In this document: positions 53,033 through 53,278 of the stretch, piece by piece | How the letters are laid out: the number at the start of each line of letters is the position of its first letter | How positions within the stretch are numbered: the stretch's first letter is position 1 | From: Peptococcia bacterium | Lineage (GTDB): Bacteria; Bacillota; Peptococcia; DRI-13; DTU073 | Direction: 5' to 3' | Assembly (NCBI GenBank): GCA_050951565.1 | Contig: JBMNJH010000012.1 | Coordinates: 63,141-127,140 of the forward strand | DNA length: 64,000 nucleotides | The notes under the pieces: model-generated | Told to the model about the DNA's origin: nothing | What the model saw: the letters and a program-made list of their open reading frames with translations, nothing else | Databases searched by the model: none | Made by a program: the position numbers and the translations under genes

Positions 53033-53278
53033 ATGGAAGGCATCTTATCTTCGACCATTCTGGCCGTGGGGATTATTCTTGGGTTGACCTTTTTGGGGGC
53101 GGGAATTGGGCTCGGCATTCTGGGTTCCAAGGTGGCCGAGGCCGTAGGCCGCAACCCGGAAACAAAGAGTGATGTGGTGCAATCGGTTATGGTCGTTGCC
53201 GTGGTGTTAATGGTCTTGTTGCTCTTACTCTTTGGTTTTGTGTTTATCTTGCTGTTTTACAACCCACTCTTAGTCTAA
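53033..53278 (+). CDS. F-type ATPase subunit c homologue (2-TM hairpin) lacking the conserved ion-binding carboxylate
   Basis: aaggagggg RBS 5 nt upstream. Helix 1 Gly motif [12 protein letters not shown], loop GRNPE (compare RQPE), and helix 2 [26 protein letters not shown] with no Asp or Glu. The track ORF 52685.. overlaps the upstream gene, so the internal ATG is used. Confidence 0.7.

Follow-up and report, generated by a model that had tools for sequence, protein, structure and literature searches.

A c-subunit homolog without an ion-binding carboxylate in a conserved cluster of genes for an F1-like ATPase and giant, probable surface proteins

Introduction

What can a c subunit of an F-type ATP synthase still do once it has lost the acidic residue at which ions bind? 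The question is raised by an 81-aa protein encoded at 53033..53278 of a 64,000-nucleotide stretch of DNA from a Peptococcia bacterium (assembly GCA_050951565.1, contig JBMNJH010000012.1), which is called the window here and on whose plus strand all features given window coordinates below are located. To our knowledge, every characterized rotor ring of a rotary ATPase carries an ion-binding carboxylate. In the rotor mechanisms of F-, V-, and A-type enzymes, a ring without this carboxylate and without the arginine of subunit a cannot convert an ion gradient into torque or torque into an ion gradient. The original prediction for this locus, made from the DNA letters, described the protein as an F-type c hairpin whose second helix contains neither Asp nor Glu and proposed that its ring could bind neither H+ nor Na+ and would serve an ATP-driven F1. 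The analysis described below confirms that the protein is a genuine relative of the ATP synthase c subunit that has lost its ion-binding acid. From its genomic setting, we consider it fairly probable that it forms the ring of a dedicated, ATP-hydrolyzing F1-like motor that would translocate no ions and would direct its output to a surface apparatus.

A c-subunit homolog that has lost its ion site

The gene starts with an ATG at 53033, 6 nt downstream of a Shine-Dalgarno sequence (AGGAGG, 53021..53026), and ends with a TAA stop codon at 53276-53278; its coordinates and letters agree with those quoted earlier. Recognition of the protein as a c subunit by hidden Markov models had been named beforehand as a point on which the assignment could fail, and Pfam ATP-synt_C (PF00137) matches it with 36.7 bits against a gathering cut-off of 24, in an alignment spanning residues 10-74 and profile positions 1-59 of 60. 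The other hallmarks of an F-type hairpin are equally evident, with a Gly-rich helix 1 (GxGxGxG) and a polar loop, GRNPE, whose RNPE is invariant in the family. The closest sequences in the PDB are all F-type c subunits, namely c1 and c2 of Acetobacterium woodii followed by those of chloroplasts and Bacillus PS3, and an hhalign comparison with E. coli c gave a probability of 94.8% over helix 1 and the loop. The NCBIfam AtpE equivalogs are not reached (best NF005363, 45.3 bits vs 71; TIGR01260, 30 vs 43.95).

In an ungapped alignment with A. woodii c2, the Na+-binding Glu faces M60 and the helix-1 Gln faces L27. Counting from the loop proline leads to the same residue, since P43+18 is D61 in E. 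coli and P42+18 is M60 in the window protein, so the non-acidic residue that had been aligned by eye at this distance is found there by both routes. Gapped alignments with PS3 and chloroplast c place the Glu opposite V61, one residue off M60. Whichever alignment is used, Asp and Glu are absent from residue 48 to the C-terminus, and a search through other alignments, frames, and open reading frames (ORFs) found none that places an acid at the ion site. The surrounding ligands have changed as well. The Glu-Thr-Thr...Tyr positions of A. woodii c2 are occupied by M/T/A-V-L...L in the c family, and the helix-1 Gln is replaced by Leu; judged from these alignments, every polar ligand of the ancestral Na+/H+ site is now hydrophobic. 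D47 was considered as an ion site and ruled out: an identical "SD" stands behind the loop of A. woodii c2, which makes D47 a feature of the loop.

Two longer readings of the gene were rejected as over-extensions, a 197-aa in-frame ORF from a GTG at 52685 (52685-53278) and a 140-aa NCBI call (P0004). Homologs are 80-86 aa long, which argues that the 81-aa reading is the real one. The N-terminal extension of the longer calls is unconserved and overlaps the 3' end of the upstream gene in a different frame.

A large family without the carboxylate

The original prediction had called for a survey of databases for further carboxylate-less c homologs and their gene neighborhoods, and this survey uncovered a large family with a dedicated F1-like operon. 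A search of 5.8 billion proteins with the window protein returned 1136 matches. The 120 matches listed are 72-100% identical to the window c, none of them has an acid in helix 2, and all 120 carry PF00137 as precomputed annotation. A pattern scan that used one genome per species found a relative in at least 426 species genomes, and the carboxylate-free hairpin is encoded in all 80 loci that were fetched.

Conservation at each position was counted in 182 unique family sequences. Position 60 is T in 86 of these, A in 54, M in 22, and S in 13, and it is never D or E; D and E are missing from positions 48-80 throughout, so that the described lack of acids in helix 2 extends from the window protein to the whole set. 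Positions 61-67 are aliphatic or Phe. Residues G39-R40-N41-P42-E43, K45, L73, N77, and P78 are invariant, and identity in c ranges from 47 to 100% across Peptococcia, Lachnospiraceae, Oscillospiraceae, Erysipelotrichaceae, and RF39-type Bacilli. This pattern of substitution indicates that the c homolog is under strong purifying selection. An invariant GRNPE loop and K45 would be expected if gamma and epsilon still dock at the c loop, and the conservation of the lipid-facing helix 2 suggests that this helix contacts protein and not just lipid.

An F1-like operon without a recognizable subunit a

The genes that follow c are tightly packed or overlapping. From c through b-delta, alpha, gamma, beta, and epsilon, the operon has the same arrangement as atpE-F-H-A-G-D-C. 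The alpha-like subunit (54057..55388, 443 aa; Pfam ATP-synt_ab, 246 bits) lacks the last ~57 residues and retains the N-terminus, the helix by which canonical enzymes bind delta. The gamma-like subunit (55385..56176, 263 aa) matches Pfam ATP-synt with 81.5 bits against a cut-off of 39.9, and the beta-like catalytic subunit (56173..57528, 451 aa), assigned with Pfam, contains the sequence EELSEEN. In alignment to E. coli alpha, the arginine finger of the alpha-like protein (in LSVSR) is R in 71 of 71 sequences. The motifs of the beta-like protein, namely Walker A, GERSREG, Walker B with its Arg ((I/V)DNxYR), and the DELSEED-like loop ([DE]ELSxED), are present in 69 of 69. The catalytic residues of the F1-like enzyme, including the P-loop, the catalytic Glu, and the arginine finger, are intact.

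Scores against more specific models set these proteins apart. The NCBIfam atpA model gives the alpha-like protein 427 bits with a cut-off of 554, and the beta-like protein falls just under its equivalog (459.8 vs 462.85). The alpha- and beta-like proteins match the NCBIfam models named MMOB1660/1670 and MSC_0619/0618 strongly, yet below their cut-offs (381.8 vs 600, 384.8 vs 850, 304.1 vs 520, and 402.6 vs 570), and the alt_F1F0 cut-offs of the N-ATPase are far from being reached (c 18.5 vs 130.85, beta 419 vs 752). Because they score under the equivalog, Mycoplasma-family, and N-ATPase cut-offs alike, we take the alpha-, gamma-, and beta-like proteins to be a distinct family of F1 paralogs.

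The 258-aa protein encoded between c and alpha (53290..54066) is predicted to comprise an N-terminal transmembrane (TM) segment continuing into a long helix, a linker, an OSCP/delta-like helical bundle, and a beta domain. In its structural model, which rests on a shallow alignment of 8 homologs (predicted local distance difference test score, pLDDT, 73.9), these parts are recovered, with 70 residues in the helix after the TM segment, disorder in the linker, and a small beta domain behind the helical bundle. When this model was compared with the PDB by Foldseek, each of the 35 best hits belonged to OSCP, delta, or mycobacterial b-delta; their E-values are weak (from 4e-3 to 0.2), but there is no ambiguity in the enrichment. 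Pfam OSCP recognizes 7 of 33 family members (best 2e-4) and the NCBIfam delta models recognize several, and the conserved C-terminal motif yD..IcEGIqI..n..YDySI aligns to the delta signature of E. coli AtpH. On the strength of these matches, the motif, and the position between c and alpha, we regard this protein as a b-delta-like peripheral stalk, and the retention of its delta-like cap together with the alpha N-terminus points to a stalk that resists torque.

After beta comes a protein of ~88 aa (57637..57903, from an ATG at 57637; the listed ORF starts with a TTG at 57562), whose size fits the epsilon N-domain only. Epsilon models give weak but recurrent matches (NF009977, best 4.7e-4 in family members and 0.092 for the window protein). 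Profile searches of the family against Pfam and the PDB returned nothing, and hhalign against E. coli epsilon, a weak test with a single-sequence target, was negative. The protein is epsilon-like by position only, with homology as a candidate explanation.

The cluster has, by the searches made, no recognizable subunit a. PF00119 matches none of the cluster proteins scanned, and tblastn with E. coli AtpB found nothing in 84 loci and the window. The next gene (57878..58462) encodes a 194-aa multi-TM protein with 5 predicted helices, a candidate membrane stator in place of subunit a. Its family is poorly conserved, with ~26% mean identity and neither an invariant Arg nor any other invariant residue. 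Thirty members of this 5-TM family match neither PF00119 nor AtpI, a profile search of the family against PDB sequences found nothing, and Pfam gave nothing recurrent. Comparison by hhalign yielded a probability of 1.5% with E. coli a and was negative with E. coli AtpI, both being weak tests against single-sequence targets.

It is followed by a TM-anchored ectodomain protein of ~242 aa (58485..59213, from an ATG at 58485; listed ORF start 58335), which is conserved in 59 loci and whose ectodomain would lie outside the cell by the positive-inside rule. Pfam and PDB-sequence profile searches assign this family to no known family, and hhalign gives it a weak similarity (probability 67%) to the N-domain of the 1817-aa protein described below. 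In many Lachnospiraceae, the 5-TM and ectodomain proteins are fused into one of ~400 aa (loci L016, L025, L037, L039, L040, and L044-L047, at ~14900-16200 in each), which suggests that the two act as a unit.

Giant, probable surface proteins on both sides of the operon

Upstream of c lie the genes for two large proteins. The first, of 1817 aa (45647..51100), has an N-terminal TM anchor, a membrane-proximal domain of ~230 aa, an acidic, collagen-like Gly-X-Y run (residues ~262-330), and fn3-like repeats, with Pfam matches to Collagen (34.8 bits) and fn3 (33.4 bits); it is conserved upstream of c in 67 of 80 loci. The second, of 598 aa (51127..52923), is also TM-anchored and contains a (GGX)n run (residues ~245-305) and an acidic Pro/Glu-rich tail, and its counterpart stands directly upstream of c in 71 of 80 loci. 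Their N-domains are homologous (hhalign probability 96%, E 3.9e-9), and in each protein the Gly-X-Y run follows this shared domain, as acidic GEx/GDx triplets in the 1817-aa protein and as GGX triplets in the 598-aa protein.

The two runs appear to be matched to each other. In the 35 loci that have both, the 2 counterparts have almost the same number of triplets, and over a range of 9 to 68 their counts rise and fall together (Pearson r = 0.99); 22 of the 58 loci compared have neither run, and 1 is discordant. The loci are phylogenetically related, which inflates the P-value of this co-variation, but the range and near-equality of the counts are hard to explain otherwise than by a single heterotrimeric collagen-like rod, which is the simplest reading of these sequences.

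On the other side of the operon, the window contains a further giant TM-anchored protein (59228..64000), which can be read for 1086 aa to a stop at 62486 and continues as GLUG-motif repeats in other frames up to the last base of the window. Its counterpart in a sister Peptococcia genome (L001, compare 16861-20241) is one continuous ORF, and in abundant gut Lachnospiraceae it reaches ~3560 aa (L081, L083, and L084, from 16075; L082). The ~3560-aa proteins show faint signals of GLUG and of Peptidase_M26_N, the N-terminal region of IgA1 protease, and no catalytic M26 domain was seen in them. All of the large proteins start with a short basic segment and one hydrophobic helix, and they are probably surface proteins anchored in the membrane with the N-terminus inside and the C-terminus outside.

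These genes form a cluster of ~17-20 kb with 10-12 genes. When the window proteins were compared with the 80 loci by tblastn, a syntenic block emerged in the order giant, ~450-700-aa protein, c, stalk, alpha, gamma, beta, epsilon-like, multi-TM, ectodomain protein, and second giant, with synteny of the whole cluster judged in loci long enough to show it. Its hosts are Peptococcia, Lachnospiraceae, Oscillospiraceae, Family XIII, Erysipelotrichaceae, and RF39-type Bacilli ("Mycoplasma sp. CAG:472"), and the block is also present in metagenome-assembled genomes (MAGs) labeled Mycoplasmatales or Mycoplasmatota. Proteins of Coriobacteriales MAGs among the c matches listed are to be treated with caution. 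A reduced form in RF39 has no downstream giant. Loci L050/L051 have the order beta, epsilon, TM, giant, 633 aa, c, 225 aa, giant; the idea that they hold a tandem module without its own F1 was rejected, since inspection of the ORFs revealed a permuted single cluster.

Some genomes carry two or three complete clusters (L025, L043, and L052 in one Lachnospiraceae MAG; L031 and L054; L056 and L065), and the giant proteins are divergent between the copies within one genome. Such copies suggest that a single motor design is combined with more than one surface cargo. The c variant P0104 (Clostridium sp. OF03-18AA) was counted in 3367 assembly blocks, where the downstream giant is that of ~3560 aa. 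Among the carriers in culture are Kineothrix alysoides and Hominiventricola filiformis; a literature search for a motility phenotype of K. alysoides yielded nothing informative.

Relationship to known rotary systems

The protein family closest to the window c is canonical AtpE (PF00137), for which the nearest solved structure is that of the Na+-type c2/c3 and c1 of A. woodii (PDB 4bem). Both are helical hairpins of 80 residues in which helix 1 carries GxGxGxGxxG, the cytoplasmic loop reads R(N/Q)PE with "SD" behind it, and FxNP(F/L) stands at the C-terminal end, and in both cases the gene precedes those of the stalk, alpha, gamma, beta, and epsilon. Unlike canonical AtpE, the window c has no Glu or Asp in helix 2, aliphatic residues at the Na+/H+ ligand positions, and no subunit a partner, and its gene is flanked by those of giant surface proteins. 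Hairpins without an acid are also tolerated in the rotor rings of known enzymes, in the second hairpin of A. woodii c1 and in the multi-hairpin K/c subunits of V/A-type enzymes. There, however, one carboxylate or more is left in the polypeptide or the ring, and ion translocation by the enzyme persists. The window protein differs from such fused proteolipids in being a single hairpin without a carboxylate and the sole c gene of its cluster.

The N-ATPase, an alternate F1Fo encoded by atpDCQRBEFAG, is an extra F-type operon beside the housekeeping one, as the window cluster may be too. Unlike the window cluster, it has kept a subunit a, and the Na+ site of its c is complete.

A different kind of comparison is offered by the closest functional analogs, the Mycoplasma ATPases of Types 2 and 3, in which F1-derived alpha/beta/gamma/epsilon-like paralogs are also clustered with membrane and surface proteins. 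These F1-like ATPases are proposed to energize surface proteins mechanically at the expense of ATP (PMC3369863, PMC11864180, PMC12994834), with the Type 2 G1-ATPase serving gliding and Type 3, with its F1-like X0, serving the antibody-cleaving MIB-MIP system (PMC11864180, PMC12994834). Their seven-gene clusters have no c homolog and contain a 12-TM protein and a large 2-TM protein instead of Fo (PMC3369863, PMC12994834), and GliD of Type 2 is hypothesized to originate from a b-delta fusion (PMC11864180). The window cluster keeps a real c alongside its own, TM-bearing b-delta-like protein, has a 5-TM protein and single-TM ectodomain proteins, and differs in gene order. It also retains the N-terminal helix of alpha, which Mycoplasma Type 3 has lost. 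Its hosts are mostly walled Clostridia and Bacilli, and its partners are collagen-like and fn3 giants, again unlike Mycoplasma. A further parallel lies in the faint Peptidase_M26_N signal of the ~3560-aa giants, which recalls the antibody-cleaving MIB-MIP partner of the Type 3 enzyme. The Type 2 and 3 clusters are said to have no equivalent in other bacteria (PMC3369863, PMC12994834). The window cluster could be a less derived relative of these systems. A literature search, with subscription-only journals outside its reach, found only the Mycoplasma systems and no description of a carboxylate-free c family or of a cluster like this one.

A proposed motor and its alternatives

If the parts of the cluster assemble as their homologs do, they would supply an F1 (alpha3beta3-gamma-epsilon-like), a b-delta-like stalk, and c, a composition equal to that of the atp operon minus subunit a. 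Since the ion-site ligands of c are hydrophobic and there is no subunit a, such a complex would run in the direction of ATP hydrolysis only. The F1 would turn gamma and epsilon together with the attached hydrophobic c-ring, the TM helix of the stalk and the 5-TM and ectodomain proteins would form the membrane stator, and the fn3 and collagen-like giants that are anchored in the membrane and encoded on both sides would receive the mechanical output. An ATP-driven rotary motor is the most economical model for a cluster in which the catalytic and torque-generating parts of F1 are under strong selection and the stalk is retained. The retained peripheral stalk argues for real torque and thus favors rotation over mere anchoring, while the synteny with the giant proteins and the Mycoplasma precedent suggest a surface apparatus as the recipient. 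Ring formation, rotation, operation by hydrolysis only, and coupling to the surface proteins are all steps that we infer from sequence. At this same inferential level, the operon, the intact catalytic residues, and the lack of subunit a lend support to the original suggestion that the ring binds neither H+ nor Na+ and works with an ATP-driven F1.

Several considerations weigh against a motor of this kind. Ring formation and rotation are assumed from homology, and it is not evident how a c-ring without ion sites could exert work on a stator, which makes it necessary to postulate that something is attached to the rotor. The link between the motor and the giants consists of conserved synteny and the occasional fusion of two small membrane proteins only. 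The alpha-, beta-, and c-like proteins are all under the NCBIfam equivalog cut-offs, and their properties may differ from those of canonical F1. Moreover, the AlphaFold 2 model of the 5-TM protein (pLDDT 55.6, from a 10-sequence alignment) is too poor for a fold search, and with the model unusable this protein may have an a-like fold.

The same parts could be put together without rotation. A non-rotating c oligomer might tether the F1-like hexamer to the membrane, with conformational pushing of a non-rotary or limited kind that might export, fold, or assemble the giants, loosely comparable to FliI/FliJ of type III export. The missing ion path, subunit a, and conserved stator Arg would suit such an anchor, all of the giant proteins require membrane insertion, and the alpha- and beta-like proteins also score against FliI/SctN models. 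Those scores are far exceeded by the F1 alpha and beta scores, however, and the giants begin with ordinary N-terminal TM or signal-anchor segments that are compatible with Sec. An anchor also leaves unexplained why the cluster keeps gamma-like, epsilon-position, and delta/b-like subunits and a DELSEED-like loop, which are parts specific to rotary torque and to resisting it, and we think this arrangement unlikely. It is very improbable that c is instead a "blank" mixed into the canonical F-type ring of the host, where it would lower the ion-to-ATP ratio as A. woodii c1 does. The best PDB match is indeed A. woodii c1, whose second hairpin has no Glu, and many multi-hairpin homologs keep Glu in one hairpin only. 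Yet the c gene always has alpha, beta, gamma, and stalk genes of its own around it in one operon, never those of a canonical atp operon, none of 84 loci contains an a or a second, carboxylate-bearing c, and the cluster is co-conserved with surface proteins and present in some genomes in two or three complete copies.

We give very little credence to the possibility that ions are bound after all, at an unconventional site made of backbone carbonyls, of M53/Q50/N77, or of a carboxylate contributed by the 5-TM protein. Almost no variation is seen at M53, N77, and P78, conservation extends to Q/H50 and S/G51, and no fold could be assigned to the 5-TM protein from its model. On the other hand, the Na+/H+ ligand positions are aliphatic, position 60 varies among T, A, M, and S in a manner unlike a binding site, the 5-TM family has no invariant polar residue, and canonical Na+ c subunits also have N77-P78 and the SD motif but do not use them as ligands. 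That the cluster is a degenerating, functionless copy of the atp operon is effectively refuted by conservation. Subunit a has been lost, the C-terminus of alpha is truncated, and the downstream giant of the window is broken, as decay would predict, but ORFs and catalytic residues are intact in hundreds of species from several classes, c is 47-100% identical among them, and the single variant in 3367 assembly blocks adds to this picture.

Returning to the ATP-driven motor, a fuller picture can be put forward tentatively. The cluster might encode a rotary surface machine in which the ion-blind ring is joined to fn3/GLUG giants and to a membrane-anchored, heterotrimeric collagen-like stalk formed by the two upstream proteins with their length-matched Gly-X-Y runs, so that torque is delivered outside the cell for movement, adhesion control, or the processing of host molecules, and this machine might be a walled relative, possibly an ancestor, of the Mycoplasma gliding and MIB-MIP ATPases.

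If the motor is real, it would mark the first case of an F-type complex that has a genuine c-ring and yet is, by design, not coupled to ion transport, and the assembly of F1 and c-ring would prove re-usable as a purely ATP-driven mechanical device. It would also give an evolutionary context to the Type 2 and 3 F1-like ATPases, which the literature regards as mycoplasma-specific. The cluster appears to be widespread, conserved, and undescribed, and it points to an unknown surface apparatus in abundant bacteria of human and animal guts, which the cultured carriers make directly accessible to experiment. Public databases name members of the c family "F0F1 ATP synthase subunit C," and cluster genes bear the public annotation "F0F1 ATP synthase subunit C/alpha/beta." Such "F0F1 ATP synthase" labels on genes of this cluster will mislead metabolic reconstructions.

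Additional features and more distant homologs

The cluster in the window is preceded by a promoter-like site upstream of its first gene (TAGACA-17-TATAAT, 45511..45539), which matches the consensus at 11 of 12 positions and is known from this consensus match only, and the upstream neighborhood is ended by purL on the minus strand. At its N-terminus (57878-57940), the 5-TM protein reads MWTKIMQTEVPWTNVMQ, but its close homologs begin MWTNI/F..., a difference that resembles a short tandem duplication of ~7 initial codons or the use of an alternative start upstream. In the window, a stop at 62486-62488 interrupts the downstream giant, and the frame changes near 62741-62752 and again near 63225. 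Either pseudogenization of that gene or local assembly errors would account for these breaks, and the other genes of the cluster are unaffected.

More distant c homologs were sought in a HMMER search that covered the 50%-identity cluster representatives of 1.84 billion proteins, and the best 150 of 274 matches (E <= 0.001) were scored. Among these best 150 of 274, 38 single hairpins have D or E and 25 were scored without. About 20 of the 25 are members or divergent relatives of the window c family, and the other five are two alignment offsets that actually have Glu, two fragments, and one more distant hairpin (P0275). Multi-hairpin proteolipids in which helix 2 was covered retain at least one acid in 52 cases and have none in the aligned hairpins in 8. 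Five divergent single-hairpin c homologs (P0159, P0162, P0165, P0184, and P0275), with 31-48% identity and no helix-2 carboxylate, may be further branches of the window system or independent losses. The search also found fused c-type proteolipids with 3, 4, 5, 8, or 14 hairpins (P0145, P0147, P0153, P0157, P0161, and others). Those with 3-5 hairpins have Glu only in the first hairpin (QAVAETxxI) and Gln in the rest (QAVAQT), and they are probably V/A-type rotor subunits with fewer sites.

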